Assembly: GCA_964478535.1 (NCBI GenBank)
Contig: CAYZNB010000001.1
Span: 1 to 54,307, forward strand
Source: an uncultured Thermotogaceae bacterium
GTDB taxonomy: Bacteria > Thermotogota > Thermotogae > Petrotogales > Petrotogaceae
DNA length: 54,307 nt
Direction of reading: 5' to 3'
Below are positions 13,560 through 53,797 of the stretch, piece after piece; the stretch's first letter is position 1; each line of letters begins with the position of its first letter. Under the pieces are notes generated by a model, which was not told the origin of the DNA, did not search any database, and worked only from the letters and a program-made list of their open reading frames with translations. A program made the translations under genes and the position numbers.

Positions 13560-13564
13560 AAGGG

Positions 13565-14899: not shown

Positions 14900-14915
14900 A
14901 AAGGAGTTTTATATT

Positions 14916-17556: not shown

Positions 17557-17574
17557 TAATGAGGGGATGATTTT

Positions 17575-25921: not shown

Positions 25922-25942
25922 AAAATCAAAGGAGAAAAAAAC

Positions 25943-26614
25943 ATGACATTTAACGATATCTTTAAATCTAGTTTTTTAGAAAGAGTAGCTAGTTTTTCTG
26001 TGTTAGATACAATTATAGCACTGTTATTAGCTTTTATATTAGGTCTTTTTATATTTTTTGTATACAAAAAAACTTTCAGTGGCGTTATTTATTCATCAAA
26101 CTTTGGGATTTCACTTATTTCTATGGCGATGATTACAGCTATGATTATTTTGGCTATAAGTTCAAATGTTATATTATCCCTTGGTATGGTAGGAGCTTTA
26201 TCAATTGTACGTTTTAGAACAGCCGTAAAAGATCCTATGGATATATCATATTTATTTTGGGCTATTTCCATTGGAATTGTTGTTGGAGCCGGAATGATTC
26301 CTTTAGCTGTATTTGGAACAGTTTTAATTGGGATTGTTTTAATGGTTTTTGCAAACAAAAAATCAATAAATACTCCTTATTTGATAATTATTAACTGTAA
26401 TAATGAAGAATCAGAGAAAAACGTTTTGAATATTATTTGCAAAAATGTAAAAAAGCAAATTCTTAAATCCAAAACGGTTTCTAAAGAAGGTATAGAAATA
26501 ACTTTTGAAATAAGATTAAATCAAACGACAACAGAATTTGTTAATCAAATTTTATTAATAAATGGAGTCAGTAATGCAATACTTGTTAGCTATAATGGAG
26601 AATATTCATCATGA
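25943..26614 (+). CDS. DUF4956-like membrane protein
   Basis: 223 aa with four hydrophobic helices and 'LSIVRFRTAVKDPMDISYLFWAI'. Sits in the position usual for the VTC/DUF4956/CotH trio. Confidence 0.6.
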   Translation: MTFNDIFKSSFLERVASFSVLDTIIALLLAFILGLFIFFVYKKTFSGVIYSSNFGISLISMAMITAMIILAISSNVILSLGMVGALSIVRFRTAVKDPMDISYLFWAISIGIVVGAGMIPLAVFGTVLIGIVLMVFANKKSINTPYLIIINCNNEESEKNVLNIICKNVKKQILKSKTVSKEGIEITFEIRLNQTTTEFVNQILLINGVSNAILVSYNGEYSS

Positions 26615-37109: not shown

Positions 37110-37184
37110 TGGAGCGGAAGACGGGGCTCGAACCCGCGACCCCTTGCTTGGCAAGCAAGTGCTCTACCACTGAGCTACATCCGC
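37110..37184 (-). tRNA. tRNA-Gly (anticodon GCC), CCA encoded
   Basis: GCGGATG acceptor, GCTC..GAGC D arm, anticodon stem CTTGC/GCAAG with loop TTGCCAA, TTCGAGC T loop. Confidence 0.85.
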
Positions 37185-37189
37185 ACAAA

Positions 37190-37266
37190 TGGAGCAGGAG
37201 ATGAGACTCGAACTCACGACCTCCGCCTTACCAAGGCGGCGCTCTACCGACTGTAGCTACTCCTGC
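37190..37266 (-). tRNA. tRNA-Thr (anticodon GGU), CCA encoded
   Basis: Perfect acceptor GCAGGAG/CTCCTGC, anticodon stem CCGCC/GGCGG with loop TTGGTAA, TTCGAGT T loop. Confidence 0.85.
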
Positions 37267-37317: not shown

Positions 37318-37734
37318 TTATTTTTCCTCTTTTTCTTTTACATTCAAAAGATTTATTTTAGCTGTAACAGTATTTTTTTGAACTTCAATTTCAAATCCCA
37401 ATTCGTGTATAAGCCAAATACCTCGACATCTTTCTCTTAAAGGCTCTTTGAATTCTGTACAATCTTTTTTTAATTCAAAGCCCTTTCCTTCATCTGTAAT
37501 TTGTACAATTAAAATATTATTCTCAAATAAAATTTTTAATTTCACTTTTTTTTGAAAATCAAAACAATTACCATGAGAAACTGCATTATTTAGCAGTTCT
37601 CTTATGGCAATACTTAGTAAAAATAAATGTTTTTCATTTTTTATATTACATTCTTCTTTTAAAAATTTTTCTATAAAAAGTGCAATTTTTGCTGCTTCTT
37701 CGTATGAAGAAAAAAAATCTGTTTCGAATTTCAT
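37318..37734 (-). CDS. HATPase_c-type anti-sigma-factor-like serine kinase (RsbW/SpoIIAB-like)
   Basis: 138 aa, single GHKL domain with N box 'ELLNNAVSHGN' and G1 'DEGKGF'. No HisKA domain. Confidence 0.7.
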   Translation of the reverse strand: MKFETDFFSSYEEAAKIALFIEKFLKEECNIKNEKHLFLLSIAIRELLNNAVSHGNCFDFQKKVKLKILFENNILIVQITDEGKGFELKKDCTEFKEPLRERCRGIWLIHELGFEIEVQKNTVTAKINLLNVKEKEEK

Positions 37735-37736
37735 TA

Positions 37737-38093
37737 TTATACTACAACTTTTGATATAGCACTTATTATCATATAGTCATTAAAAGGTTTTTTCAAAAAT
37801 ATATCTATTCCTAAATTTTTAGCTTCTTCTCTAATTTCTTCATCACCCATAGCACTCAACATTATTATATTAGCTTTAGGATTAATCGTTTTTATATTTT
37901 TTGAAGCTTCCATACCATCCATTATAGGCATAGTTATATCCATGAAAATAACTTCAGGATTTAATTTTTGAAATAATTCTACTGCTTCTTTTCCGTTTTT
38001 TGCATCTCCACAGACTTCATGCCCATTTTTTTCAAGAGTTTTTCTCAATAATGAATGAATTAATGGAGAATCGTCAACTATTAATATTTTCAA
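37737..38093 (-). CDS. single-domain response regulator (CheY-like receiver)
   Basis: 'ILIVDDS...DITMPIMDG...LSAM...KKPF'. The TTG start overlaps the upstream TGA (TTGA). Confidence 0.85.
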   Translation of the reverse strand: MKILIVDDSPLIHSLLRKTLEKNGHEVCGDAKNGKEAVELFQKLNPEVIFMDITMPIMDGMEASKNIKTINPKANIIMLSAMGDEEIREEAKNLGIDIFLKKPFNDYMIISAISKVVV

Positions 38094-39277
38094 TTTTGTT
38101 CAGCCTCCTCAAAACAATTTTTTATTATGATTATGCTTATATCATCTTTTATTATTTTATCTTTAATTTTATTTTTTGAAAAGTTTTCTAAAATATATTT
38201 ATTTATGTTCTCTATCAATTCATTTTCATTTTTGAAATTTTCAAATAAAATCTTTGCATGGTTTAAAAATATTTCTAAATTACATTTTAAAGAGTTGCTA
38301 AAAATTTCAAAGTTGTCAAAAAAACCGTCCGTATACATAAAAATCATATCATTTTTATTAAACATTATATTTGTATCTTCAAAAAAAACATCTTTTAAAA
38401 TTCCTGCTAAAAAACCTTTTTTGGTAAGAACTTCGAATTCATTTTGTTCACGCCTATATAATATAGGAAAAGGATGTCCAGCATTAGAAAAAGTTAACTG
38501 GTTTTTTTCAATTTTTCCAATAAATGCAGTAAAAGAAAACATTTCAGAAGAATTAAAATTACTTTCCATAAAATCATTCATTTTTTTTAAAACTTCAGAT
38601 GGTTTTTTATTTTCTTCAGCATAATTTGCAAATAAAACTTTTATCATTGAAGAAATTATTGAAGCTGTTATTCCATGGCCTGAAACATCCGCTATTATAA
38701 ACCATGTTGCTTCATTTATTTCAATACAATCGTAAAAATCTCCGCCTAATTCAAAAGATGGTATATATAAACCTTTGAAATTAACATTTTTTAATTTTTT
38801 TTGATTATTGATAATATTTTTCTGAAAAAAACTAGCAAGATGAAGTTCTCTATTTATTTTTTCATTAAAAGTCATTATTTCTTTTGTTTGCTCATAAACT
38901 TTAAGAGCATTATTGACTTTTAAAGGCAAAATAAAATCTATTTCTTCTGTTTTAAGAGGTTTTTCAAAAAAATCATGTGCTCCTAATGATAAAGCTTTTT
39001 TTATTGAATCTGTTTCATTCATCGCCGAATTAATTATGATTGGTATTAAATTGTATTTTCCATCTTTTTTAATTATTTCTAAAAATTCAAAACCGTCCAT
39101 TTCGGGCATCATTAAATCTAAAATTATTAAATCAATATCATTTTTATACAAAATTTCAAGGGCTTTTCTTCCGCCTTCAGCTTCAAATATTTTAAGGTTA
39201 GAAACAGTCTTTTTTAATATTGCAATTATAAGCTTTCTATTAAACAAAACGTCATCAACAACCATTATATTATTCAT
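38090..39277 (-). CDS. response regulator fused to PP2C/SpoIIE-type phosphatase (RsbU-like)
   Basis: Receiver 'MVVDD...DLMMPEMDG' followed by 'GGDFYD', 'IADVSGHGITAS' and 'MYTDG' PP2C motifs. Confidence 0.85.
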   Translation of the reverse strand: MNNIMVVDDVLFNRKLIIAILKKTVSNLKIFEAEGGRKALEILYKNDIDLIILDLMMPEMDGFEFLEIIKKDGKYNLIPIIINSAMNETDSIKKALSLGAHDFFEKPLKTEEIDFILPLKVNNALKVYEQTKEIMTFNEKINRELHLASFFQKNIINNQKKLKNVNFKGLYIPSFELGGDFYDCIEINEATWFIIADVSGHGITASIISSMIKVLFANYAEENKKPSEVLKKMNDFMESNFNSSEMFSFTAFIGKIEKNQLTFSNAGHPFPILYRREQNEFEVLTKKGFLAGILKDVFFEDTNIMFNKNDMIFMYTDGFFDNFEIFSNSLKCNLEIFLNHAKILFENFKNENELIENINKYILENFSKNKIKDKIIKDDISIIIIKNCFEEAEQN

Positions 39278-39288
39278 TTTAATCCCCT

Positions 39289-39747
39289 CTATTCGATTGC
39301 AAAATTAACTTCTATTATTCCAACAGAAAGAATCAATTCAATACATATAGTTTCAGCCGTGCTAAGAATTAAATACACATCTTTTCCTGTTACTATTGAT
39401 GGTGGAGTAATATCAAAATTAATTCCTAAAGAAGCAATTAAAGAACTCGCCGTTCCCGACATCATGTTTGTCAATTCTCCAAGAGCACTTCTTGCCATTT
39501 CATCTAATTCTGAAACTTCCATTCCCATCATCATCAATGAAACGATATTTTTTGCTGTTTTTTCGTCCATACTATAAGCCACATTACCTTTTATCCCATC
39601 AACTAAACCTATCATAGAAGTAACTTCTCTATCTATAACCATAATATCTTTTTTAATTATTTTTCCTTTTTTTACATCTGGAATTCCGATTTGTTCTAAT
39701 ATAGTTTTTATAGCACTTAAAAAACTGTTTAACAACTTTGCATCCAT
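39289..39747 (-). CDS. CheX/CheC-family CheY-P phosphatase-like protein, copy 3
   Basis: One 'SALGELTNMMSG...(x21)...PP' ExxN-x22-P motif. Confidence 0.7.
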   Translation of the reverse strand: MDAKLLNSFLSAIKTILEQIGIPDVKKGKIIKKDIMVIDREVTSMIGLVDGIKGNVAYSMDEKTAKNIVSLMMMGMEVSELDEMARSALGELTNMMSGTASSLIASLGINFDITPPSIVTGKDVYLILSTAETICIELILSVGIIEVNFAIE

Positions 39748-40224
39748 TTATTTATCACCTTCCACAGCTACATTAAATAAAATTTTTCCATATTCGCAAT
39801 GAGAATCTAAAGTTACGGAAGGAATTTTAGGAATAGAGATTATTACATTTTCTCCAGTGAAAATTATTGGAGGAGCTAATCTTAACCCTGCTTTTAATTC
39901 ATCATTTAATAAAGTTAACGCATCTCCACCTATTGTATTCAAAATTTCTGTCAAACAAGCAAGAACCATTCTATCCTTAATATCTTCATATTTTTCACCT
40001 GTTATATGTTCGGAAATTTTCAAAGCTACATTTTTTTCCATATCTAACAATATTCTGCCTTTAAAATTTCCCGCAAAACTTACGGAAGCTGATATTCCAT
40101 AAGATTTTAAATCTCCGTCAAAATCATAAACATCTCCAGAATTATTTATTTCAATACCGCCCATTACAAGCATCATTTCCTTAAAACTTTTTACAAAAGG
40201 AGCTGTTCTTTTTTTATCTATCAT
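39748..40224 (-). CDS. CheX/CheC-family CheY-P phosphatase-like protein, copy 2
   Basis: One 'LTEILNTIGG...(x21)...PP' motif. ATG behind AAGGAGG. Confidence 0.7.
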   Translation of the reverse strand: MIDKKRTAPFVKSFKEMMLVMGGIEINNSGDVYDFDGDLKSYGISASVSFAGNFKGRILLDMEKNVALKISEHITGEKYEDIKDRMVLACLTEILNTIGGDALTLLNDELKAGLRLAPPIIFTGENVIISIPKIPSVTLDSHCEYGKILFNVAVEGDK

Positions 40225-40238
40225 TAGGAACCTCCTTA

Positions 40239-40709
40239 TTAAATAATAATTATATTTAAAAATATTTTTAAATCATTTGCAAAGAACATTTTTGAAACGG
40301 AAGGAATGTTTTTTTTATTAATAAACGCATGATTATCCCCCTCAATTGTAAATGGTGAAGTCAAGTTAAAATGATTTTCAGTTCCAGAAAATATTATTTT
40401 TACTTTCCCTGCAATCATGTTCACAAGTTCGGATATTCCATCAGACAATTCGTCTTTAGTTAAATCTTCCGGTAGCATTCCTGTCATATAACTCATAAGA
40501 ATTCTTACACTTTCTTCTGATGTAGAAAGTGTAAAAATGTAATTGTATTCATCACCTTTTAAAAACATCACACCTGAATAATCTGCATTTTCATGTAAAT
40601 GTTCTTTTTCAGATACTAAAAGTCCTGTCATTGTTGTTAAAACATTTATAGTTGATTCTGTAAAAGCAGTATCTATAATTTTTAATTTTTTTTCAATAAT
40701 TTCACTCAT
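40239..40709 (-). CDS. CheX/CheC-family CheY-P phosphatase-like protein, copy 1
   Basis: One 'ISELVNMIAG...(x21)...P' motif. The start is set to the ATG at 40709 (MSEIIEKK), which forms an ATGA overlap with the cheY stop. Confidence 0.7.
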   Translation of the reverse strand: MSEIIEKKLKIIDTAFTESTINVLTTMTGLLVSEKEHLHENADYSGVMFLKGDEYNYIFTLSTSEESVRILMSYMTGMLPEDLTKDELSDGISELVNMIAGKVKIIFSGTENHFNLTSPFTIEGDNHAFINKKNIPSVSKMFFANDLKIFLNIIII

Positions 40710-41083
40710 AAAAATCCTTCTCCAAGACATTCTAAAATTCTTTTTTGTAATTCTTCCATAGAGAACGGTTTTATCAAATAATTTGCAGCACCTGCTTTAA
40801 TAGCTTGAACTATATTTTCTTTTTCTCCTTCAGTAGTAACCATCATGACCGGTATACCATTATACTTTTCATCTTTTTTGATAAATTTTAAAAACTCAAT
40901 ACCATTCATTCTGGGCATATTCCAGTCTAGCAATATAAGTTCAATATCTTCATAACCCTCTTCGATTTTTTCTAATCCTTCAATTCCATCAATTGCTTCT
41001 ATTGTTTCCATTTCAAGAACATCTGCTGCCTCTCTAATAATTTTTCTAACTATCGAAGAATCATCTACAACTAATATTTTCAA
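40706..41083 (-). CDS. cheY: chemotaxis response regulator CheY
   Basis: 125 aa, 'ILVVDDS...DWNMPRMNG...VTTEG...YLIKPF'. The TTG start overlaps the cheR TGA (TTGA). Confidence 0.85.
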   Translation of the reverse strand: MKILVVDDSSIVRKIIREAADVLEMETIEAIDGIEGLEKIEEGYEDIELILLDWNMPRMNGIEFLKFIKKDEKYNGIPVMMVTTEGEKENIVQAIKAGAANYLIKPFSMEELQKRILECLGEGFL

Positions 41084-41946
41084 ATAAAATCACCCCTCTC
41101 AAAATGACAATAGTAAACTCCTTTTTCAAATTCAATTTGTTTAAAATAATTCGAATAATCAGGTAAAATTTCTGAAGCTCCCACTACTAAAAAACCATTT
41201 TTATCTAAAGAATTAGATATTTTTTCTAAAATATTTTTTTTCAATTCTTTTGAAAAGTATATCAAAACATATCTGCAAAATATCAAATCAAATTTTCCCA
41301 AAGAACTGAAATCATTTAAAAGATTAAAATGAGTGAATTTGACTATATTTTTTATTTCATCATTTAATTTGAAAACTCTTCCTTCTTTTTCAAAATATTT
41401 TTCTAAATATTTTTTATCTAAACCCCTCATTACAGATATAGCGTTATATCGACCTTCTTTAGCTATATTTAAAACTTCTTTAGATATATCTGTACCTATT
41501 ATTTCAAAATTTTCTAATGTAACGTCTTTTATATTGTTTTTTATTAAATATTCGTTTATACAAATAGAAGTTGAATAAGCTTCTTGTCCTGTTGATGATG
41601 CCGCAGACCATATTCTGAATTTTTTGATTTTTTGATCTCTAACACTTTCAATTGCTTCAGGTAAAATATTTTTTTCTAAAAAAATCCAAGGTTTTATATC
41701 TCTGAACCATTGAGTTTCATTAGTTGTAATGGCATCTATTATTTTTTCTTTAAGCTTTTCATCTTTACTCATATTGATCTTTTTATAAAATTGTTCAAAA
41801 TCATCACAATCATATTCTACTAATAATCTTGCAAGTCTGCTTTCAATAAGGTATTGTTTTTCTTCATTTAAACTTATTCCACATAATTCTTCTATAAATT
41901 TTTGTATCTTAATGATCGTATTATTTTCACCCATTAAAATCACCAC
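41080..41946 (-). CDS. cheR: chemotaxis protein methyltransferase CheR
   Basis: 'TNETQWFRD' and SAM-binding 'RIWSAASSTGQEAYS'. The ATG at 41934 (MGENN) is an alternative to the GTG at 41946. Confidence 0.9.
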   Translation of the reverse strand: MVILMGENNTIIKIQKFIEELCGISLNEEKQYLIESRLARLLVEYDCDDFEQFYKKINMSKDEKLKEKIIDAITTNETQWFRDIKPWIFLEKNILPEAIESVRDQKIKKFRIWSAASSTGQEAYSTSICINEYLIKNNIKDVTLENFEIIGTDISKEVLNIAKEGRYNAISVMRGLDKKYLEKYFEKEGRVFKLNDEIKNIVKFTHFNLLNDFSSLGKFDLIFCRYVLIYFSKELKKNILEKISNSLDKNGFLVVGASEILPDYSNYFKQIEFEKGVYYCHFERGDFI

Positions 41947-43015
41947 TTATTATTTTAGATATTCTGTTACCTATTATTTCAATATCAAGTGATTCATCTG
42001 AAAAACCAGCTTTTTCAACTCTCATAGGCATACCATAAACTACACAACTCTTTTCATTTTGAGTTATGCAATAACATTTTAAATTTTCTTTTAAATGTTT
42101 AATACCCTTTTCACCATCATTTCCCATACCAGTTAAAATTACCGCTAAAATATTAGTGTTTTTATCATAAACATTTGTCAATGATTTAAATAAAACATCT
42201 GCTGAAGGTTTCACATTAATAATAGGATCGTCATTTTTATATTTAGCAATTATTTTATTTTCAATTTTTTCTAAATAAAGGTGTTTTCCACCAGCAGCAA
42301 TATAAATTTTTCCTTCACATATTTCTTCATTTTCTTGAACTTCAACAAAATTCATTTTTGTCTTGCTTTTTAACGATTGAGCTAATATTTGAGTAAATTT
42401 TTCAGGCATATGTTGAGTGATTATAATAGGTGTTTTAATACTTTTATTCAATTTAATAAAAAGTTTATCTAAAGCAGATGGACCACCAGTTGATGAAGCT
42501 ATTAAAATAATCTTTGGTGTTGAAATAATTGTTTTTTCTTTTTTTTGAATTTTTTCAGATATAATTTCCATTTTCTTTTCTTTTTCAAATTCAATTTCAG
42601 ATATTTTCTTTACTTTAATTTGATTAAAAATAGAGTTTAGCTTATTTCTTATAAAAAGCATATTTCTTTCTAAATTATCTGAATTAGGCTTCAATATAAA
42701 ATCAAAAGCACCATTTTCTAAAGCTTCTACAGTCATTCTTGCTGTATTGTCATCACCAGAAGATATCAATACTACTTCTATTTCAGGATATTTTTCTTTT
42801 ATTATTTTAAGAGTTTCAACTCCTGTTAAACCTGGCATAAATATATCCATCAAAACAACATCAAAGTCGTTTGAATTTTGAATTTTTTCTAATGCGTTAA
42901 AACCGTTTGAAGCAAAATTATTAGTTTTAGCGTTAGATGTTTTATTTATTGCGTCAGTTAATATTTTTCTGTATATAAGAGAATCGTCAACTACTAAAAC
43001 ATTTAGCTTTTCCAT
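41927..43015 (-). CDS. cheB: chemotaxis response regulator protein-glutamate methylesterase CheB
   Basis: Receiver 'VLVVDDS...DIFMPGLTG' plus esterase 'ASSTGGPSAL', 'TQHMP' and 'LTGMGNDG'. Confidence 0.9.
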   Translation of the reverse strand: MEKLNVLVVDDSLIYRKILTDAINKTSNAKTNNFASNGFNALEKIQNSNDFDVVLMDIFMPGLTGVETLKIIKEKYPEIEVVLISSGDDNTARMTVEALENGAFDFILKPNSDNLERNMLFIRNKLNSIFNQIKVKKISEIEFEKEKKMEIISEKIQKKEKTIISTPKIILIASSTGGPSALDKLFIKLNKSIKTPIIITQHMPEKFTQILAQSLKSKTKMNFVEVQENEEICEGKIYIAAGGKHLYLEKIENKIIAKYKNDDPIINVKPSADVLFKSLTNVYDKNTNILAVILTGMGNDGEKGIKHLKENLKCYCITQNEKSCVVYGMPMRVEKAGFSDESLDIEIIGNRISKIISGDFNG

Positions 43016-43056
43016 ATATTAACCTCTCTTAATTATTGACTTGAATTAGAAGTGAT

Positions 43057-44421
43057 TTAATATTTAAATTGTTTAAGAAGTGTATTAAGTTTTTCAGAAA
43101 CTTCTCCAGCATTTATAGACGTTTCGTTTGTTTTTTGTGCTCCGCTTGATACTTCTGTTGATACCCCAGTTATTTCGGTCATGCTTTGCGATATGTTGTT
43201 TGCTCCTGCATTTATTTCTCCAACCGCTCTCACTATATCGTTAACTTGTTTTGATACAGATTCTATATTTGTTGATACTTCATTAGACGCATTCGATAAT
43301 TCTCCTGATGATCTTGCTATTTCTTTTACTCCTTTTGATGTTTCGTTCAAACTCCTCGTTACTTCTTCTGCATTTTTAGATATTGTAACTACTTCTTTTG
43401 TTATTGAGCTTACCATTTCAGCTGCTTCTACCATACTGTCAGATATTTGTTCTGTTACTGATGTCTGTTCTGTTACTGCCGAAGCTATTATTCCCGCTAT
43501 ATCTGTTACTTCTCCAACTACTTCTTTTACAGATTTCATAGCATTTATTGCCTGTGACATGTTATTTTTCATATCATCAATTTGTAAACTTATTTCTTCT
43601 GTTGCTTCGCTCGTTTGTTTTGCTAATTCTTTTACTTCATTCGCTACTACTGCAAATCCTTTTCCCGCTTCTCCTGCTCCTGCGGCTTCTATCGCTGCGT
43701 TTAATGCCAACATGTTTGTTTGATCTGCTATATCATTTATTACTTCTACTATTTTCCCTATTTTCTTTGATGATTCATTTAATTTTTCCATCACTGTATT
43801 TGTTTCATCTGTTCTCATTTTTGCTTCATCTGTTATGTTTATCGATCTTTCTGTATTTTTACTTATTTCTCCAAGTGATATGTTTATTTCTTTTATTGAT
43901 GTCGATACTGAATTTACAGATTTTGATACTTTATTAGATGAATTTTCAGTTACCTTTATACTTTGAGATACTTCTTCCATTGATTTTTCTATATTTACCA
44001 ATCCTACTGATGTTTCTTCCGCTGCTGCCGCAAGATTTTTTATTGTCGATGTCATTTCTTCTACTGCGGATGATATGCTAGTTACATTTTGTCCTGTTGT
44101 TCCTAGCGATTCATTCGTATCTTCTATATTTGTAGATATTTCAGTTATTGCTGAACTTACTTCTTCTGTTTTTGCCGCAAGTTCTTCACTACTTGATGAA
44201 AGATTTGTAGATACATCCATCATTTCAGATGAAGATTTGTTCATAGTTTCTGATAATTCTCCTATATTTTTCATCGATCCTTTCAATGAATTTGCCATTT
44301 CATTCAATGATCTAGCCATTTCTCCTATTTCATCTTTCTTCTTTGATTTAAATTCTACTGTTAAATCTCCTGTTCCAAATTTCTTTATTTCTCCTTGCAT
44401 CTTCTTTAATGGCTTTGTTAT
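43057..44421. repeat. near-identical 1.37-kb duplicated segment, copy A (HAMP + signalling domain of MCP)
   Basis: Matches 45068-46432 at an offset of 2011 bp. Only three mismatches were found by eye: 43058, 44349 and 44372. Confidence 0.9.
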
Positions 44422-45042
44422 ACCGTTAATAAGAGGAATTGCTATTAACAATGTTATTAATCCTCCTATAACTGCTATTGCAATTAAAACTAACGTTATT
44501 CTGAAAATTTCTCCTCCCAGATTTTCAAGAACCTCTCCAGCTTCAGAATATGCAATTTCATAATATCTATCTCTTATTAAAGATAAATATTTTTGTGTTT
44601 CTCTCAAAGCAAGTAATGTTTGATTTTCATAAATATCTATTGCATTAGTATAATCACCTACATTTGTTAATTGTATAATAGCAGATGCTGATTCATGTAA
44701 TTTTACATGAGGCTCTTTTATATCTTCTAAAAAAGATAATAATTCTACATCTGTAATTTGAGAGGCTTCTTCTCCGTAAATCCATGTTCCTAAAGAACAT
44801 TTAGTAAAATCTAATTGACCTTCAAATTTTGTTTTCATATAAACATGATTTCCTAAATTTTGTGAATAAACAAGATGTGCATTTTCAATATTTGCAATAT
44901 TTAAATTAACGTTTAAATTTTCTTCAACTAAAAATGTATATCCTCCTATTACATCTAAATAATAATAAGTAATACCTAATATAAAAGTTATTAAGATCAA
45001 GAAAAAAATAATTAAAAATATTAATTTAGACTTTATTTTTAT
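43057..45042 (-). CDS. methyl-accepting chemotaxis protein with extracytoplasmic CZB-motif sensor (probable ATA start)
   Basis: TM1, ~150-aa sensor, TM2, HAMP and MCP signalling domain ('[28 protein letters not shown]'). The ORF track starts at the TTG at 45000, which has no SD. The frame is open to 45060, and the ATA at 45042, 6 nt after GGGGGG, would give [10 protein letters not shown]..., parallel to the [10 protein letters not shown]... of the neighbouring MCP. Confidence 0.85.
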
Positions 45043-45067
45043 ACAAATCCCCCCTTTTACTTAATGA

Positions 45068-46432
45068 TCAATATTTAAATTGTTTAAGAAGTGTATTAAG
45101 TTTTTCAGAAACTTCTCCAGCATTTATAGACGTTTCGTTTGTTTTTTGTGCTCCGCTTGATACTTCTGTTGATACCCCAGTTATTTCGGTCATGCTTTGC
45201 GATATGTTGTTTGCTCCTGCATTTATTTCTCCAACCGCTCTCACTATATCGTTAACTTGTTTTGATACAGATTCTATATTTGTTGATACTTCATTAGACG
45301 CATTCGATAATTCTCCTGATGATCTTGCTATTTCTTTTACTCCTTTTGATGTTTCGTTCAAACTCCTCGTTACTTCTTCTGCATTTTTAGATATTGTAAC
45401 TACTTCTTTTGTTATTGAGCTTACCATTTCAGCTGCTTCTACCATACTGTCAGATATTTGTTCTGTTACTGATGTCTGTTCTGTTACTGCCGAAGCTATT
45501 ATTCCCGCTATATCTGTTACTTCTCCAACTACTTCTTTTACAGATTTCATAGCATTTATTGCCTGTGACATGTTATTTTTCATATCATCAATTTGTAAAC
45601 TTATTTCTTCTGTTGCTTCGCTCGTTTGTTTTGCTAATTCTTTTACTTCATTCGCTACTACTGCAAATCCTTTTCCCGCTTCTCCTGCTCCTGCGGCTTC
45701 TATCGCTGCGTTTAATGCCAACATGTTTGTTTGATCTGCTATATCATTTATTACTTCTACTATTTTCCCTATTTTCTTTGATGATTCATTTAATTTTTCC
45801 ATCACTGTATTTGTTTCATCTGTTCTCATTTTTGCTTCATCTGTTATGTTTATCGATCTTTCTGTATTTTTACTTATTTCTCCAAGTGATATGTTTATTT
45901 CTTTTATTGATGTCGATACTGAATTTACAGATTTTGATACTTTATTAGATGAATTTTCAGTTACCTTTATACTTTGAGATACTTCTTCCATTGATTTTTC
46001 TATATTTACCAATCCTACTGATGTTTCTTCCGCTGCTGCCGCAAGATTTTTTATTGTCGATGTCATTTCTTCTACTGCGGATGATATGCTAGTTACATTT
46101 TGTCCTGTTGTTCCTAGCGATTCATTCGTATCTTCTATATTTGTAGATATTTCAGTTATTGCTGAACTTACTTCTTCTGTTTTTGCCGCAAGTTCTTCAC
46201 TACTTGATGAAAGATTTGTAGATACATCCATCATTTCAGATGAAGATTTGTTCATAGTTTCTGATAATTCTCCTATATTTTTCATCGATCCTTTCAATGA
46301 ATTTGCCATTTCATTCAATGATCTAGCCATTTCTCCTATTTCATCTTTCTTCTTTGATTCAAATTCTACTGTTAAATCTCCTTTTCCAAATTTCTTTATT
46401 TCTCCTTGCATCTTCTTTAATGGCTTTGTTAT
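45068..46432. repeat. near-identical 1.37-kb duplicated segment, copy B
   Basis: See copy A. Translations are identical in the coding frame and in two antisense frames. Confidence 0.9.
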
Positions 46433-47434
46433 GCTAAATATTGTAGGTATTGCGATTATTATACCAATTACTACAGCTATTACAAGACCAACTATCAATA
46501 TAATAATTGCAGTTGCAAGCTCATCGTTTAATTCTTGTCCTTCACGTATTGTTTGATTAGATATATAATTAGCAAACGCTTCTGCTGTTGCAAGAACTTG
46601 TGTTTGCCCTACTTCTGTTCTTAAAGAATCAACTTCATCGAGTCTTGTTCTAAGTTGCACATATCTATTAACTTCATTTCTATATGCAATTGCAGAACTT
46701 AATATATTCTCTAATCTTTGAATGTTTATTTCTAATCTTGTATCAGCTAATAATTCTTTTGCATAATCTTCAATAAGATCAAAGTTTTCAATAACTCTTT
46801 CTAAATATGCTATATTATTGTTAGCTCTTGCTGATGTGACACCTAAATTTATTTCATTTCCTAAATCTAAAAGATAGTTTGAAAGAGTTAATCTGTTAAT
46901 TCTTCTTATTAATTCTTCTTCAGTTTGATTATCTTTCACATCGTTTTCTAAATTTTGCGTCATAATTTCTACAAATTCAACTGCGTTTTTTATGTATATA
47001 TCAAATTGTTGTTCTAAACTTCTATTAACTATTCTTAAGTTATTTATAAGATCAGTTGTTTCAATCATTAATTTTTCGTATTCAATAACCCCTTTTTCAG
47101 CTTCTTCAACAGTTTTTACAAAATCTGATAAATTGTTGTCATTTCCGAATTTCTTCGCTTCATTTATATAATTTTTCAAACTTTTTAACTCGCTTTCAGC
47201 TAAAACATAAAAATTATCGTTTTCTCTAAAAGAATATCCTCTCATTTCATACATTAGTCCATATACTTCTCTTTCTATACTTGTAGAATAATTCATTTCA
47301 ACAATATTTATATCGGTCATATCAGTCACAGACTCTTGTGCTGTCATCATATTAAAAATAGCTAATACGCCAAGTATTCCCATTATTATAAGGATTACAA
47401 CAAATCCAAGTGATATTTTTGCTGATATTTTCAT
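45068..47434 (-). CDS. methyl-accepting chemotaxis protein with ~290-aa helical extracytoplasmic sensor
   Basis: TM1, a long helical ligand-binding region, TM2, then HAMP and a signalling domain identical to that of the neighbouring MCP. Confidence 0.9.
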
Positions 47435-47446
47435 GTTTTCTCCCCC

Positions 47447-47908
47447 TTAATTGATTTTGTTATTTTGATCTAACAAAAAATGTTCTGGATTAAAAATTGT
47501 TTCTGGGTCTAAAACGATAAGTATATTTTCTTCAATTTTTGCAATTAGTTTTATAAACTTATCTTCAATTCCTTTTATGTTAGCTGGCGGAGATTCTGTT
47601 ATTTCTTCATCAATTTCAAGAACATCTCCGGTTTTATCTATTAAAAATCCTACAGTATTTATAATTTTAGAAGTCATTTTTAAAGTTATACACGTATTTT
47701 TAGTATATGTTTTTTCTTCAAATCCTAATATTTTATTTAAATCAAATACTGTTACTATTTGTCCTCTCATATTAAATAAGCCTTTAATATGGTCGTTTGA
47801 ATCTGGTACTTTTGTATAATCTATATTTCTATTCAATTCTTTTACAATGTTTATATCAACTCCATAAAGTTCTTCATTCAAATAAAAAGTCAATACCTTT
47901 GAGGTCAT
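47447..47908 (-). CDS. cheW: chemotaxis coupling protein CheW
   Basis: 153 aa single CheW domain ('LTFYLNEELYGVDI...RGQIVTVFDL'). ATGA overlap with the cheA stop. Confidence 0.9.
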   Translation of the reverse strand: MTSKVLTFYLNEELYGVDINIVKELNRNIDYTKVPDSNDHIKGLFNMRGQIVTVFDLNKILGFEEKTYTKNTCITLKMTSKIINTVGFLIDKTGDVLEIDEEITESPPANIKGIEDKFIKLIAKIEENILIVLDPETIFNPEHFLLDQNNKIN

Positions 47909-50900
47909 GATTGCACCACCTCTTTTTCAAATATTTCTTTTAACAGAGTTAGAAGTCTTTCTTTATCTATTTTTGTTTCATAATAATTGAATCCTGATTT
48001 TAAAACAGAATTTTTAATTTTATCTCCAGTCATGCTTGTAACTGCTATTGCTGGAATATGTTTAAATTCTTTTTGTGAGCGTACCCATCTTATAAATTCT
48101 TCTCCTGTCATTTCAGGCATAACTATATCACTTACTATTGCATCTATGTTTTTAACTTTTTTCAACATTTCTACGCCCTCTTTACCATTTTTTACCCAAT
48201 GAACTTTGTAATTTGCATTTTCTAAATAATTTTTTTCAAGCTTTAAGAAAAATTCAGTGTCTTCAAGAAGTAATATATTTTTTTGTTCTTTAGATTTTAA
48301 ATTTTTATCATCTTCATATAACTCTGGTACTGCCGTTTCAAAAAGCTCAAAACTGTTAAGAATTAAAACTATTTTTTTATTTATTATTGTTGTGCCTAAT
48401 ATTCCTTTAGATTTTATCACTTTTTTACTTTCGTCGTTTAATTGAAGTTTTGTTTCATGAGTATCTATTATTTTATGTATAAGTATACCAAGAGGATGTT
48501 TTGAAAATTTGGGTATTATAACATAAAGCTTTTCTGGAAGATTGTTGTTTTTTTCTATTGGAAGATGATCTTCTGGTCTTATTATTCTATATTCTGTATT
48601 TCTGTATTGAATATATTCATTTCCTCCAATTTTTTCTATATCATTTTTGTTAATAACTTCTACTCTTGAAACCATAGATAAATCTATTGCAAGCATTTCA
48701 TTTCCAGAGCATTTGAAAAGCATAAAATTTTGTGATTCTTGTACTGCATATTGAGAATGCTTTTTTTCAGCATCTGTTTTTTCAATCATGTCTTCTACAT
48801 ATTTAAGATTTGCTTTTTTTGATATGCCTTCAGCATCAAGTATCATTGCTATTTTACCGTCTCCCATTATAGTAACACCTGAATAAGCTATAGAGTTTCT
48901 CAAATATATTGATAAAGGTTTAACTAAAATTTCTTCTGTTTCGTGAATTTTATCTACCATTATTCCATATTTTTTTGTACCAACTTTTACTACAAGTATT
49001 CTTTTTACATTCTCTTTTTTTGTTTCTAATTTTTGGATTTTTAACACATCAGATAAATCAACAATTGGTAGCAAATTACCTCTCAAACGCAACACTTTAG
49101 CATTACCTATATGTTCTATTTTATTTTTATCGTTTTCTTTTAGTCTATAAATTTCTTGAAGATTTACTTGAGGTAAAGCAAATTTATTTCCCCCTATTTC
49201 AATTATCAATGAGGAAATTATTGCAAGGGTTAAAGGAACCATAAGCCTGAATGTTGTGCCAGAACCAATTTCTGTTTTTATATCTATGCTTCCGCCAAGT
49301 TTTTCTATATTCGTCTTAACAACATCCATTCCTACTCCTCGACCTGAAACATCTGTTACTTTCTCTGCAGTAGAAAATCCGGGTTCAAATATCAGTGAAA
49401 GTATATCTTTTTCAGAAAGTTTTTCTAATGATTCTTTTTTTATTAATTTATTAGATAAGGCTTTTTTCTTTATTTTTTCTGGATCAATTCCTGTTCCGTT
49501 GTCTTTTATTTCTATGTTAACTCTACCGCCTTCATGATAAGCTTTTAGAGTTATTTTTCCTTTTTTTGCTTTTCCATTTTTTTCTCTAACATCAGGTTTT
49601 TCTATCCCGTGATCAACTGCATTTCTTATTAAATGTGTTAAGGGATCTGTTAAAGCTTCTATTATAGATTTATCTAATTCAACTTCAGTACCATGCATTT
49701 CAAGCTCGATTTCTTTTCCTAATTTTCGTGTCATTTCCCTTATTATTCGTGGAAATTTGTTAAATATTTTCGAAACGGGTTGCATTCTTGTATTCATTAT
49801 TTTTCCTTGAAGTTCTGTTGTGGTGAGGTCTATGTTTTGAAGAATAGGTTCGAGGCCTTCTATCTTTTTTCTTTGAAATTCGAGCGTTCTTAATAATTGA
49901 TTTCTTCCCAAAACCATTTCACTTGCAAGATCAAGAAGACTGTTTAAAAGCGAAACGTTTACTCTTACTGTTTCGTCAGGAGATATTTTATTAACTCGCT
50001 GTTCTTTATTAGGGGGTTCTTCTAAATTGTTATCCTCTTCAACATCTTCTTCTATTATTTCATTTTTTTCAAAATTTGATTCAGTTTCTTGATTTTTAAG
50101 TATTTTATCATTTTTATCATTATTTTTTTCTAATGATTCATCCATAAGAATTTCTTTTACTTCTCCAACTTTTAAATTCACGTCGAGTTTTATAATTCTA
50201 TGAGGTTCTATTTGTAAAGCTAGAGATACTAACTCTTCATCTAAAACTGTTGAAAAAATAAATATATAATTAATTTCAGCTTCTTCTATATTTTTTAACC
50301 CGGTTACTTCGCTTATATCAGTATACGCATCTATAACCAAACCTATAGATTCTATTTTCTTAAAATAAACTACAGGATTTAAATTTTTTGATTCGACATC
50401 TTCTTTTAATTTCAACTTTATTTTATATATATTATGACCATGACTTAAAGCGTATTTAACTGTAACTTTTTGTTCTTTGTCTATATTTAAAGATTCTTTT
50501 TCGGGAGTTATTAACTCTAGTTTTTCTTTGCTTTCAATTCCTTTTTTTTCGTTTTTTTCAATTATTTCTTTAACTTTTTTAACTGTATTATCTATATTTA
50601 CATTTTCGCTTTCAGAAATATTAAAAACCATTTTTTTTAATAAATCTAAAGACTCAAGTGTAACATCTATTATTTTAGGGTCTACTTTAATTTCAGATCT
50701 TCTTATTATTCCAAAAAGATTTTCAATACTATGAGCACAATTAACCAATTTTTTCAGCCCAAAAAAACCGGCTGTTCCTTTTATACTATGGACAGATCTG
50801 AATATAGAGTTAATTAAATTAGCATTTTCGGGAGATTTTTCTAATTTTAATAAAGCTTCTTCGATGGATTCTAAATGGGTTGTAGCTTCATCTACAAACT

Positions 50901-50934
50901 CCTGAATGTAATCTTCATTTGACAAAATTTCCAC
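47905..50934 (-). CDS. cheA: hybrid chemotaxis histidine kinase CheA (Hpt, dimerisation, HATPase, two CheW-like domains, C-terminal receiver)
   Basis: 'FRSVHSIKGTAGFFG' Hpt, 'HLIRNAVDHGIE' N box, 'DNGTGID' and 'GRGVGMDVV' G boxes, two CheW-like segments, then 'ILLLEDT...DIVMPEMTG...VTSM'. The start is ambiguous: GTG at 50934 or TTG at 50925. Confidence 0.9.
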   Translation of the reverse strand: MEILSNEDYIQEFVDEATTHLESIEEALLKLEKSPENANLINSIFRSVHSIKGTAGFFGLKKLVNCAHSIENLFGIIRRSEIKVDPKIIDVTLESLDLLKKMVFNISESENVNIDNTVKKVKEIIEKNEKKGIESKEKLELITPEKESLNIDKEQKVTVKYALSHGHNIYKIKLKLKEDVESKNLNPVVYFKKIESIGLVIDAYTDISEVTGLKNIEEAEINYIFIFSTVLDEELVSLALQIEPHRIIKLDVNLKVGEVKEILMDESLEKNNDKNDKILKNQETESNFEKNEIIEEDVEEDNNLEEPPNKEQRVNKISPDETVRVNVSLLNSLLDLASEMVLGRNQLLRTLEFQRKKIEGLEPILQNIDLTTTELQGKIMNTRMQPVSKIFNKFPRIIREMTRKLGKEIELEMHGTEVELDKSIIEALTDPLTHLIRNAVDHGIEKPDVREKNGKAKKGKITLKAYHEGGRVNIEIKDNGTGIDPEKIKKKALSNKLIKKESLEKLSEKDILSLIFEPGFSTAEKVTDVSGRGVGMDVVKTNIEKLGGSIDIKTEIGSGTTFRLMVPLTLAIISSLIIEIGGNKFALPQVNLQEIYRLKENDKNKIEHIGNAKVLRLRGNLLPIVDLSDVLKIQKLETKKENVKRILVVKVGTKKYGIMVDKIHETEEILVKPLSIYLRNSIAYSGVTIMGDGKIAMILDAEGISKKANLKYVEDMIEKTDAEKKHSQYAVQESQNFMLFKCSGNEMLAIDLSMVSRVEVINKNDIEKIGGNEYIQYRNTEYRIIRPEDHLPIEKNNNLPEKLYVIIPKFSKHPLGILIHKIIDTHETKLQLNDESKKVIKSKGILGTTIINKKIVLILNSFELFETAVPELYEDDKNLKSKEQKNILLLEDTEFFLKLEKNYLENANYKVHWVKNGKEGVEMLKKVKNIDAIVSDIVMPEMTGEEFIRWVRSQKEFKHIPAIAVTSMTGDKIKNSVLKSGFNYYETKIDKERLLTLLKEIFEKEVVQS

Positions 50935-50946
50935 CGCCTTTTTAGT

Positions 50947-51249
50947 TTATTCAATAGAAAATTTTTCATTCAATCTCATTAAAGCGAATAAATCTTTAAT
51001 ATCTTCATTTGTGTTAATAAGTTTGAATTCTTTATTTTGTTTGGAAACAATTTTATACATAGCTACTATAAAAGTAATTCCTACAGAATCTATATAACTT
51101 ACATCTTTTATATCTAAAATTATAGTTTCAAATTTTTCAATTTCTTCAATAAAATTTTGAGCCTTATCATTAATTTCTCGAACTTTCGAGGCAATAAGAT
51201 TTTGTTCCACTATTAAAATCATTGATTTTTCTACTATTTTCTTTTCCAT
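50947..51249 (-). CDS. STAS-domain anti-sigma-factor antagonist (RsbV/SpoIIAA-like)
   Basis: 'ILDIKDVSYIDSVGITFIV' contains the conserved phosphorylatable Ser context. The start is set to the ATG at 51249, 8 nt after AGGAG. Confidence 0.75.
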   Translation of the reverse strand: MEKKIVEKSMILIVEQNLIASKVREINDKAQNFIEEIEKFETIILDIKDVSYIDSVGITFIVAMYKIVSKQNKEFKLINTNEDIKDLFALMRLNEKFSIE

Positions 51250-51351
51250 AATGAATTCTCCTTTAATATTTTTTTTAAAAAACATATCATTTATTAATAT
51301 AATCTTTATGAAAATTATACTATATTTTTTATAAAAAATAAAGTGTATTTT

Positions 51352-52659
51352 TTAGGTTAAATTCTCTATTAAAATTTTTATCAAATCATTTCTTTTATAA
51401 GGTTTTGTTAAATATCCGGAAAATCCTTTTTCAAAAGCTAACTTTGCTTCTTTTTGCCCTGTTATTGATGTAAATAAAACCAAAGGAATATTTTTTGTTT
51501 TTTCTATCTGTTTTAAAGTAGTAGCTAGATCAATACCGTCCATTTCAGGCATTTCATAATCTATTAAAATCAAATCATATGAAAATTTTTCATTTTTCAT
51601 TATTAAACTTAAAGCTTGACTGGCCTTTTCAGCAGTATCAATAATAACTCCCACTTCTTCTAAATATATTTTTGCGATTTTAGTGTTTAAAACATTATCA
51701 TCTACAATTAGAATACTTTTATTTTTTAAAATATTATAATCTAAAATTATATTTGTTTTTTCTCCACTATGTTTTTTTAAAGTAAGCGTAAAATAAAAAG
51801 TTGTTCCATAACCTTTTTTACTTTCAACCCATATTTTTCCTTTCATCATTTCTACTATTCTTTTACATATTGAAAGACCCAATCCTGTTCCGCCATATTT
51901 TCTTACTGTTGATGAATCTTCTTGCGTAAATGGATCAAAAATTTTTTTCAGAGTTTCTGAATTCATGCCTACACCAGTATCTTCAACTTTAAATAATAAT
52001 TCTAATTTGTTTTTGTAATCTCTTTTTTTACTTACTTCAACAAAGATATGTCCTTTTTCTGTAAATTTAACTGCATTATTTAAAAGATTATTTAAAATTT
52101 GCTTTAATCTATCACTATCCCCTATTAAATTTTGCGAGACATTTGATTCTACTAAAATATTTAATTCTATATTTTTATTATTTGCATTGACTGTAAAAGG
52201 TATTGCTGCCTCCTCTATTTTTTCTATCAAATCAAATTCATGTTCGTCAAGTAAAAATTTACCAGATTCTATTTTTGATATATCTAAAATATCATTTATA
52301 GTATTCATAAGTTTATCGGTAGATAATTTTATATATTTAACATATTCTTTTTGTTCTTCATCTAATTGAGTTGATGCAAGAAGGTTTATAAAACCTGTTA
52401 TTCCATTCATAGGCGTTCTTATTTCATGACTCATATTAGCCAAAAATTGACTCTTGGCTATGTTTGCAACTTCTGCTTTTATCGTCAACTCTTTTTCTTT
52501 TTTTAGCATTTTTTTGATTTTTTTGTGCGTTTCTTTCAATTCTAAATTATTTTTTATTAAAGCTCTTTGTGCTGTAACTAATTCATTGTTCAATTGAGTT
52601 ATTTTATTAAATAACTCATTGTCGTCATTTTTTAATTTTTGATTTTTATTTTCTTCCAT
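51352..52659 (-). CDS. soluble hybrid sensor histidine kinase / response regulator
   Basis: Coiled-coil N-terminus, H box '[14 protein letters not shown]', N box '[12 protein letters not shown]', G box 'GGTGLGLSI', C-terminal receiver 'ILIVDDN...DYEMPEMDG'. No TM segment and no recognisable sensor domain. Confidence 0.9.
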
Positions 52660-52672
52660 TTTAAAATTCCTT

Positions 52673-53710
52673 TCATATATTCAATAATTTTTTAACAACC
52701 TCAACAGTATTCAAAGCGTCTTTTGAATATCCATCTGCTTTTAAGGTTTTCCACAAATTTTGATCTACGTTGAAAGGATATCCGCCAACCATAATTTTAA
52801 TATGTTTTGTGGATTCATTTATTTTTATTTCATTAATTATTTTTGAGGCTTCTTCTATGTGTTCTGTCATAGTCGCAGAAAGCATTAAAATATTTGCTTT
52901 TTTTTGTTTTATAGATTTCATTATATCTTTTAGAGGCATATTTGCACCTAAATAATAAACATTAAATCCCTCAAGTTCTAAAAAATCACTTACAATTCTT
53001 ATTCCAATTTCATGTAATTCGTGGCTTACACTTGCTGCTATTATAGTATAATTATTTTTTATCGTATTTAAAACATAATTATATAATTGTGACATAATCA
53101 TCTGTGTTGAAGCCGTAACATAATGTTCTTGAGCTACATTTATTTTATTTTCTTGCCACATTTTTCCAACTTCTATTTGAGTTGCTTGAAAAATTTCCAA
53201 GTATATTTCTTTTATATCTTTTCCTTTTTCAATATATTTCATTATTAAATTAGAAGCTTCCCCCTTATTTCCATCCAATAAAAAGTTCAAATATTTTTGA
53301 GCTTCATTTGTAAGAGTAATATCTGAATTTTTTAAATCTTTTTCTTTTTTTACTTCCTCTAAAGCAGACTTTAAAAATACTTCTATAATTTTAAATTCAT
53401 CTTTTGAAAAGTGTTTTTTCAGTATAAAAGTTACACATTCTAAATTTTCTATAAGCTCTTGTGAAGATATATTGAGATTATCTAGAAGAATTTTAGCCCA
53501 ACTAATGTAATCTATAAATAGTTTAATGCTTGAAAATTTAATAGTTTCAGCGAGGTGAGTTAAAGTATGCTTTATATCTCTTTTGCAAATATTAATTTGA
53601 TATGAGGTATATTTTTTTTCCAAACTGGGATTTATAGAAAATTGCTTTTCTAATATTTCTTGAACTAACACATCCATATTTTTCATTATATAATCAAATA
53701 TACCGCTCAT
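52673..53710 (-). CDS. standalone CarH-like cobalamin-binding protein with N-terminal helical extension
   Basis: '[20 protein letters not shown]' (Wx9EH) followed by '[35 protein letters not shown]' (ExHxxG) and 'IMVGGYPF'. The start is set to the ATG at 53710, 5 nt after GGGAGG. The stop lies 13 nt from the hybrid kinase start. Confidence 0.75.
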
Positions 53711-53797
53711 TTTTTCCTCCCGAATTTTTTCAATTTTTCCATTAGCCCCTCTACTTTTCCCAACACTCAACAACAACTTTTTTATATCGCTTTCCTA

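Follow-up and report, generated by a model that had tools for sequence, protein, structure and literature searches.

The present analysis deals with a stretch of DNA of 54,307 nucleotides (nt) from an uncultured Thermotogaceae bacterium, hereafter the window, and in particular with a minus-strand gene at 52673..53710 (-). Based on Pfam, homologues and gene callers, its 345-amino-acid (aa) product is assigned to the photoglobin–B12 (photocobilin-type) sensors, with the globin domain placed first. The following gene, at 51352..52659 (-), encodes a hybrid histidine kinase of 435 aa, and from 53710 down to 37318 every gene is read from the minus strand, neighbours either overlapping or standing only a short distance apart. 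We consider it probable that the sensor acts as a detached input subunit of the adjacent hybrid kinase, and propose that the signal may be passed into a Che-like/partner-switch pathway.

The sensor protein and its predicted cofactor pockets

The longest open reading frame (ORF) over the sensor gene, 52673..53776 (-), begins at a TTG codon and would give a protein of 367 aa. The true start is likely the ATG at 53710, which is preferred to the upstream TTG because it is preceded by the Shine-Dalgarno sequence GGGAGG (53716..53721 (-), 5 nt ahead). The 345-aa start was also chosen by independent gene callers on four metagenome contigs that carry an identical sensor. Residue numbers are given here in the 345-aa frame; those of the first-pass annotation, which was made from the letters of this DNA and counted from the TTG, are higher by 22.

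The protein is formed by a photoglobin (phycobiliprotein-like globin) domain at residues 1-122 (53345..53710 (-)), supported by a profile, a domain model and Foldseek, followed by a B12-binding_2 four-helix cap at residues 138-209 (53084..53299 (-)) and a Rossmann-type B12-binding domain at residues 222-335 (52706..53047 (-)). The latter two, which the first-pass annotation had recognised by their motifs, were both found with the respective Pfam hidden Markov models (HMMs), with E-values of 1.8e-13 and 1.6e-23. Neither Pfam nor NCBIfam detects a helix-turn-helix, MerR or other DNA-binding domain, as had been stated, and the TransRegCarH model covers only residues 137-286, with 53 bits against a cut-off of 400. 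An AlphaFold2 model of the full-length sensor has a mean pLDDT of 92.4.

The cobalamin module contains the adenosyl-pocket motif W185-x9-E195-H196 (53123..53158 (-)), in which G182-x-x-W185 forms a GxxW signature, and the motif E231-x-H233-x-x-G236 (53003..53020 (-)), in which H233 is the predicted lower axial cobalt ligand by alignment with His108 of the photocobilin SasPcob. The first-pass annotation had placed both motifs at exactly these codons. All 120 homologues examined (120 of 120) have W185, E195, H196, H233 and G236, so the matches are not due to chance, and W185, E195/H196 and H233 align residue by residue with W61, E71/H72 and H108 of SasPcob. The best matches of the sensor among solved sequences are the photocobilin entries 8J2X/8J2W (E about 8e-19), and CarH and LitR chains also match. 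In a Foldseek search with the full-length model, the SasPcob B12 domain was found with a root-mean-square deviation (rmsd) of 1.8 Å, together with the cobalamin domains of CtMerR and TtCarH; E-values to the CarH/CtMerR cobalamin modules were about 1e-8 to 4e-10. Since the solved photocobilins have their domains in a permuted order, this search matched the B12 half alone and not the globin, which was therefore modelled and searched separately.

The signature of light-responsive modules has been described as GxxW, EH, GxxH and GxxxP (SignatureFinder, PMC11796333). The sensor has GxxW (G182..W185), EH (195-196) and GxxxP (G255..P259), all three invariant in the family. Following the Trp there is a Gln in the sensor (Q186), as in SasPcob, whereas TtCarH has His132 at that position. 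By these features, with three of the four signature elements present, the cobalamin module would be of the light-responsive type, which agrees with the original proposal of a CarH-type light-responsive cobalamin signature in a protein without a DNA-binding domain.

The helical region that precedes it, about 125 aa from the ATG, had been described as an N-terminal extension of unknown type, a description that has to be replaced: comparisons of sequence and of predicted structure identify it as a photoglobin domain, with the bilin Asp and Trp and, in addition, a Cys. A profile of the first 126 residues, made from 25 members of the family, matches allophycocyanin and phycocyanin chains, with a best E-value of 1.5e-8, as well as the C-terminal globin of SasPcob (8J2W residues 229-319, E 6e-6). 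The AlphaFold2 model of the globin domain alone has a pLDDT of 95.7, and its top Foldseek matches are allophycocyanins, with TM scores of 0.84-0.86 and rmsd of 1.8-2.0 Å. Moreover, many homologues carry a precomputed match to PF00502 (phycobilisome protein), and the fusion proteins match it too.

The bilin motif is C42-K-R-D45 (53576..53587 (-)), which aligns with the C-L-R-D of allophycocyanin. In the alignment with SasPcob, D45 corresponds to Asp270, C42 to Thr267 and W71 (53498..53500 (-)) to Trp296, these numbers being those of PMC10979010, which are obtained by adding 5 to the chain numbering. W71 is invariant (120/120) and D45 nearly so (119/120); C42 is present in 60 of the 120 homologues (Tyr in 44) and R44 in 9. 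The CXRD form, which is that of phycobiliproteins, is found in just 9/120 homologues, while the family mostly has CXQD or CXED. Rockwell et al. 2023 (PMC10151467) described the CXRD and CXQD motifs, with CXQD/CXED as the usual forms of the photoglobin–B12 family, from which the sensor departs. Zhang et al. 2024 (PMC10979010) reported that Asp270 and Trp296 of SasPcob hold biliverdin and bridge it to the corrin, and that Trp296 touches both the bilin D ring and the corrin. The bilin-pocket Asp and Trp of the photocobilins are both present in the sensor, as D45 and W71, and C42 would lie at the position of covalent attachment in phycobiliproteins, where it could give a covalent bilin adduct. Judged from its sequence, the sensor is a two-pocket (bilin and B12) protein of the photocobilin class.

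Photoglobins were defined by Schneider et al. 2021 (PMC8717448), where they are reported to be fused to B12 domains 'either before or after', and a subgroup with a C-terminal B12 domain is also listed in PMC10979010 (globin at the 'N- or C-terminus'). Since both works recognise that subgroup, the globin-first order does not exclude the sensor from the family, and its sequence places it as a globin-first member of the published photoglobin–B12 family and not as a bare CarH module. The family is large. There are 724 near-full-length relatives at E<=1e-5, almost all of 345-365 aa and with about 40% identity over the full length, and at E<=1e-30 a library of 1.84 billion proteins gives 1043 clusters (50% identity). 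Photoglobin–B12 sensors are encoded in at least 581 GTDB species of bacteria and archaea, and members are numerous in metagenome-assembled genomes (MAGs) of methanogens, Cloacimonadota, Anaerolineae and Promethearchaeota. The nearest relative of the window sensor has 44-46% identity, and bacterial and archaeal globin-first members have about 40% identity to each other.

Pairing with the hybrid histidine kinase

The sensor stop codon TGA (52675-52673) and the kinase ATG (52659) are separated by a 13-nt spacer (52660..52672 (-)) that includes AAGGA. The kinase is composed of HisKA (residues 68-133), HATPase_c (180-295) and REC (316-430) domains, with His78 as the predicted phospho-accepting residue, and has neither a sensor domain nor an Hpt domain. 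No membrane span is predicted in it, as no 19-residue window has a mean Kyte-Doolittle hydropathy >1.04. The first-pass description of a soluble kinase 13 nt away and lacking a sensor of its own is thus confirmed, HisKA beginning already at residue 68.

The gene directly 3' of the sensor gene encodes a HisKA+HATPase_c kinase in 46-49 of 76 related loci and a GGDEF protein in 7 of 76. The two genes usually overlap or lie within about 25 nt, and the closest relatives of the sensor, too, have a kinase or a GGDEF protein as partner, the stop codon of one gene often overlapping the start codon of the next. Partner outputs in the related loci include kinase, GGDEF, PAS-GGDEF, GAF-GGDEF and HisKA_2 kinase. 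A kinase output, which had been thought unusual for a CarH-like module, is therefore typical of the family and its commonest context. In PMC8717448, photoglobin operons with histidine kinases, receivers, STAS, SpoIIE and ABM monooxygenases are reported, and a link of photoglobin–B12 proteins to two-component systems is predicted.

Whatever their output domain, most partners share a signature helix, with consensus LYDELSRLNNEL-x3-QREL-x-KKN-x-EL (short form LNNEL-x3-QR-x-L). An HMM of this helix was built from proteins adjoining photoglobin–B12 genes, and its only match in the window is the kinase (residues 15-42; 52534..52617 (-); E 2.6e-10). Of the 80 related loci, 65 have the helix, which with few exceptions is part of the partner adjacent to or fused with the sensor; it is present in 0 of the 119 closest homologues of the window kinase core. 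These closest homologues are generic hybrid kinases of 550-760 aa, uninformative on taxonomy or context. The available part of PMC8717448, which was not term-searched for either element, holds no mention of a partner-specific helix or of the partner N-terminal domain described below; its Fig. 5 lists a 'SHELIX' transmitter domain.

Natural fusions give the same association in a single chain. Two proteins from Thermoanaerobaculia (loci L006 and L049) have the order photoglobin-B12-helix-HisKA-HATPase, and a protein of 816 aa from Gemmatales (L064) adds a receiver to this series, so that it corresponds to the two genes of the window joined together. L064 is collinear with the window pair through the junction, the pair reading "...KLLNI" and, past the gene boundary, "MEENK...", and the fusion "...RLLNI...YDELSRLNNELLTAQREL". 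In two Abditibacteriaceae loci the helix is found one gene further downstream; there the N-terminal domain and the helix-plus-output part are apparently two consecutive genes (L037:11017-13264 and L055:11017-13739), so that the signalling chain appears to be divided in yet another, third manner.

Most partners carry, ahead of the helix, an N-terminal alpha/beta domain of roughly 130 aa with the motif G-x-A-L-x-C-D ... K-A-x-x-F-L ... F-x-W-E ... H-F-x-G ... I-N-N-E-Q-x-N-x-L-R. No Pfam model matches this domain, nor does any PDB sequence in a meaningful way (best E 0.018), and it is a candidate for a dedicated receiver domain for the sensor. It is found with kinase and GGDEF outputs alike; examples are L009:11044-12255, L007:4223-5425 and L048:11031-12044. 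An RsbW-like N-terminal docking domain had also been considered, from HATPase_c_2 matches in 31 partners; these matches overlap the C-terminal catalytic domain and the idea was dropped. The members from Methanobacteriaceae (L019, L025, L028, L050 and L081) have no adjacent partner with the signature helix; their neighbour, at a distance of about 310 nt and in divergent orientation, is a gene for a NucS endonuclease.

Domain identity, motif conservation, gene pairing, the signature helix and the fusion proteins are matters of observation. Because of the conserved adjacency, the partner helix and the natural fusions, the sensor is most likely the detached input subunit of the adjacent hybrid kinase that the first-pass annotation had suggested.

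Gene array, host and cofactor supply

The array runs from the sensor and the hybrid kinase through genes for a STAS protein, CheA-REC, CheW, two methyl-accepting chemotaxis proteins (MCPs), CheB, CheR, a CheY-like REC protein, three CheX/CheC phosphatases, REC-PP2C, a single-domain REC protein and an RsbW-like kinase. The STAS-domain protein, of anti-sigma-antagonist type, is encoded at 50947..51285 (-) (Pfam E 3.4e-12), where the gene callers prefer an internal start that gives 100 aa. The CheA-like kinase (47905..50934 (-)) has Hpt, dimerisation, HATPase, CheW-like and REC domains and contains the only Hpt domain of the array. CheW, both MCPs, CheB, CheR, the CheY-like REC protein and the three CheX/CheC-type phosphatases occupy 39289..47908 (-), as found with Pfam. 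A domain scan places the REC-PP2C (SpoIIE-type) phosphatase, the single-domain REC protein and the RsbW-like HATPase_c_2 kinase at 37318..39277 (-), and these three together with the STAS protein would form a partner-switch output. Chemosensory genes (CheA, CheW, MCP, CheB and CheR) and REC-PP2C, STAS and RsbW-like kinase genes are therefore found in one gene array.

Such a context is uncommon for the family: a Che gene occurs within 10 kb in 1 of 80 related loci (L080, with CheR and CheW). No STAS or SpoIIE protein was found near the relatives by single-sequence phmmer at 1e-6, a search whose sensitivity for STAS is low. That the kinase may pass its signal on to Che or partner-switch proteins is suggested by the structure of the operon in this organism.

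The two MCP genes are in tandem (43057-45000 (-) and 45068-47434 (-)). Their C-terminal halves match at 464 of 487 positions and their last ~440 residues are identical, with a repeat of 100%-identical DNA at a spacing of 2011 nt. The N-terminal sensor regions are unlike each other, one being CZB zinc-binding and the other 4HB-like. The identity could be due to recent duplication, to gene conversion or to an assembly effect.

The array ends just before a separately promoted pair of tRNA genes (37113-37266 (-)), with a TTGACA-17-TATAAT promoter at 37307-37279 and a terminator with a 14-bp stem at 37109-37077. The perfect sigma-70 promoter and strong terminator had been taken for a small-RNA gene, a candidate that was discarded on finding the tRNAs. 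Rfam gives only four tRNAs, and there is no cobalamin riboswitch or other structured RNA near the locus. At the opposite end, the sensor-kinase-Che array is identical in loci L001-L004, and the upstream side of the DUF4301 gene (past 54307) differs completely, containing sugar-nucleotide genes in one, resistance-like and housekeeping genes in another, and fatty-acid genes with an IS21 IstB fragment in others, which suggests that the junction on this side varies between strains.

Regarding the host, the GMP synthase of the window has 71% identity to a protein of a Thermotogae MAG and 64-69% to Petrotoga and Marinitoga proteins. The window has about 27% G+C and encodes a pyruvate:ferredoxin oxidoreductase. 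JGI metagenome 3300033176, whose listed source is an anaerobic digester in Wageningen, contains one of the contigs with an identical sensor.

As for bilin supply, 21 of 72 related loci have a highly conserved gene for an ABM (IsdG-fold) monooxygenase, which precedes the sensor gene by 30-100 nt on the same strand (for example L005:9520-9930, L021:9659-9958 and L027:9657-9959). The lineages in which it occurs are, we presume, mostly aerobic. It is plausible that the ABM protein is a heme-to-bilin enzyme forming a three-gene module with sensor and kinase.

Other genes of the window also involve corrinoids. A second standalone B12-binding protein, of 217 aa, is encoded at 4158-4811 (+); it has the E-x-H-x-x-G motif and an I-W-K-E-H segment, with Ser replacing the Trp of Wx9EH, and its best solved match is the cobalamin domain of the light-responsive CtMerR (8JBS, E 2e-6). 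Its stop codon overlaps a gene for a MacB/FtsX-type permease, which is followed by an ABC ATPase gene (4808-5980 and 5973-6671). At 11907-18912 (+) there is a gene for a GH3-family adenylating enzyme and then four tandem ORFs of about 444 aa, of which the two that were scanned (13565-14899 and 16225-17556) are B12-binding radical-SAM proteins. The two B12-binding proteins and the radical-SAM ORFs show a heavy use of corrinoids by the organism. Apparently unrelated are a trio of VTC-domain, DUF4956 and CotH-kinase genes at 25226-28365 (+) and a leucine-rich-repeat protein of 512 aa at 9338-10876 (-).

Proposed mechanism, alternatives and known systems

The mechanism that we propose goes beyond the observations in five respects, namely cofactor binding, photochemistry, the contact surface, the sign of the regulation and everything downstream of the kinase, all of which we infer. 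The globin would offer a bilin pocket (D45, W71 and also C42) and would pack against the CarH-type cobalamin module, in which W185 and E195-H196 would form the adenosyl pocket and H233 would ligate cobalt from below. By homology with SasPcob and CarH, the sensor with bound adenosylcobalamin (AdoCbl) may be a dimer. Cleavage of the Co–C bond, driven directly by green light or, via a bound bilin, by red light, would remodel the E-H helix and change the quaternary state. As in SasPcob, water or hydroxide is the predicted ligand in the resulting light state; the bis-His state of TtCarH is not expected because Q186, and not His, follows the Trp. The sensor would then probably act through the N-terminal signature helix of the kinase (residues 15-42), which leads into the HisKA helical bundle, and may thereby change how the kinase phosphorylates itself at His78 and passes the phosphoryl group to its receiver domain. 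Finally, the signal would enter the presumably co-transcribed Che-like pathway and the REC-PP2C / STAS / RsbW-like partner switch.

Several facts weigh against this proposal. Our literature search found no characterised globin-first member, and none shown to act on a kinase. Of the light-responsive signature, GxxH is absent in the sensor, which has H230 at the position of the Gly (Gly in 59 of 120 relatives). The kinase of the window lacks the partner N-terminal domain, to which there is no significant match anywhere in the window; if that domain is the docking site, the coupling here may be weaker or different. The domain is likewise absent from the partners of L082, L065 and L061, which have short N-termini, and from the fusions, and taken together these cases point to the helix as the minimal coupling element. 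Besides, the absence of an Hpt domain from the kinase leaves its receiver without an apparent onward route. The Thermotogota host and the digester contig indicate a setting where light is scarce, and neither a heme oxygenase nor an ABM gene was found in the window (an HMM of 21 ABM proteins gave a best E of 0.2; no search aimed at heme oxygenase was made). Given the habitat and the missing ABM gene, the model is at its weakest for this organism where it takes light as the stimulus and assumes a supply of bilin, and light as the natural signal is uncertain.

It may then be asked whether the same module and the same kinase partner serve a signal that is chemical instead of light, such as corrinoid form or availability, cobalt redox state, oxygen exposure or a linear tetrapyrrole. 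The host, a member of the Thermotogota with pyruvate:ferredoxin oxidoreductase genes, would fit such a signal, as would the anaerobic-digester contig with an identical sensor and the many family members in MAGs of methanogens, Cloacimonadota, Anaerolineae and Promethearchaeota. The ABM gene, mostly of presumed aerobic lineages, is missing in the window, and several other B12-dependent proteins encoded there indicate that corrinoids matter to the cell. On the other hand, the light-pocket residues GxxW, Wx9EH and GxxxP (PMC11796333) are invariant in the family, window sensor included, all characterised proteins with the signature are photoactive (PMC10979010, PMC11796333), and a digester origin is compatible with occasional light exposure. 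We think that a non-light signal is possible but clearly the less probable case. A chemical bilin/B12 sensor that feeds, via a split hybrid kinase, a Che-like pathway with a PP2C/STAS/RsbW-type partner switch can likewise be put forward only tentatively. If true, it would be the first link of cobalamin or bilin sensing to a chemosensory array, and much of this widespread family, including the members from methanogens and Asgard archaea, would be non-photic.

The identity of the target can be questioned too. What the sensor regulates might instead be the STAS protein, CheA, an MCP or some other operon product, the adjacency of the kinase being incidental; the STAS gene is located 3' of the kinase gene, and SasPcob has been predicted to interact with STAS and SpoIIE-type proteins (PMC10979010). 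Yet kinase adjacency is kept across phyla, the kinase has the partner-specific helix, sensor-kinase fusions occur, and STAS and Che genes are not companions of the sensor in the related loci (the sensitivity of the search for STAS is low; Che in 1/80), so in our opinion another target is improbable. The least credible alternative, for which we see hardly any chance although the first-pass annotation had itself left room for it, is that the protein carries methyl groups on a corrinoid for a methyltransferase, in the manner of MtbC/MtaC/MttC. It is true that the top NCBIfam matches are the MtgC, MtbC and pyl_corrinoid models and that some relatives are automatically annotated as 'methanogenic corrinoid protein MtbC1'. 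The scores, however, are far below the cut-offs (79 vs 370, 73 vs 350 and 68 vs 215 bits) and reflect the generic B12 domain only, there is no methyltransferase gene nearby in the window or in the relatives, and Wx9EH, the globin domain and the signalling neighbours speak against it. The methyl-carrier was rejected on the sub-cut-off scores and the signalling gene neighbourhoods.

We thus favour the photoglobin–B12 sensor as the detached input of its kinase. The family is already known, a partner kinase is usual in it and the arrangement is ordinary; particular to this locus are the CXRD motif, a split hybrid kinase in which the helix alone is retained, the Che-like/partner-switch operon and the anaerobic host. 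As a group, the globin-first photoglobin–B12 proteins are numerous and strongly conserved, with invariant cofactor residues, and our literature search found no experimental study of them. We think that the locus offers good handles for such work: a compact soluble sensor-kinase pair with natural fused and split versions, and a signature helix that marks the partners and is the obvious candidate coupling element, so that the partner-helix and fusion evidence is useful for studying the family. Sensor-kinase pairs of this kind are also candidate green-/red-responsive optogenetic two-component systems. That strict anaerobes of dark habitats have members of the family leads one to ask if light is in every case what these "photoreceptors" sense.

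Compared with known systems, the residues C46, D49 and L80 given as representative by Schneider et al. (PMC8717448) correspond to C42, D45 and L76 of the sensor. The text of that work names no CheA, CheY or MCP and uses 'chemotaxis' for HemAT only. With CarH/LitR (TtCarH, 5C8D; CtMerR, 8JBS) the sensor has in common the fold of the cobalamin module, Wx9EH and the lower axial His. Those proteins have a MerR DNA-binding domain, which the sensor lacks, whereas the sensor has an extra globin; the output of CarH is release from DNA and that of the sensor would be a kinase partner. Unlike phycobiliproteins, the sensor has no lyase or bilin-synthesis genes nearby. It shares with them the globin fold (TM 0.84-0.86) and CXRD at the chromophore site, but phycobiliproteins harvest light, whereas the sensor would sense, with its globin fused to a B12 module.

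The closest known systems are the photocobilins SasPcob (8J2W/8J2X) and AbDPcob (8J2Y), two globin-last members whose structures were solved by Zhang et al. (PMC10979010), who reported binding of AdoCbl and biliverdin and responses to green and red light. They have the same three domains as the sensor (cap, Rossmann B12 and globin) and share with it W-x9-EH, E/DxH, the bilin Asp and Trp and the Gln after the Trp. The differences are also clear. Across the B12 module the identity is only about 22%, and the sensor has C42 where SasPcob has Thr. As the solved photocobilins are globin-last and the window sensor is globin-first, there is no solved structure of its topology, and its branch of the family is known from sequence alone. 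The partner is a hybrid histidine kinase in the window and a diguanylate cyclase in the case of the photocobilins. Standalone photocobilins activate the diguanylate cyclase in trans via protein-protein contact (PMC10979010), and for the sensor, which is equally standalone, action in trans on a signalling enzyme is expected.

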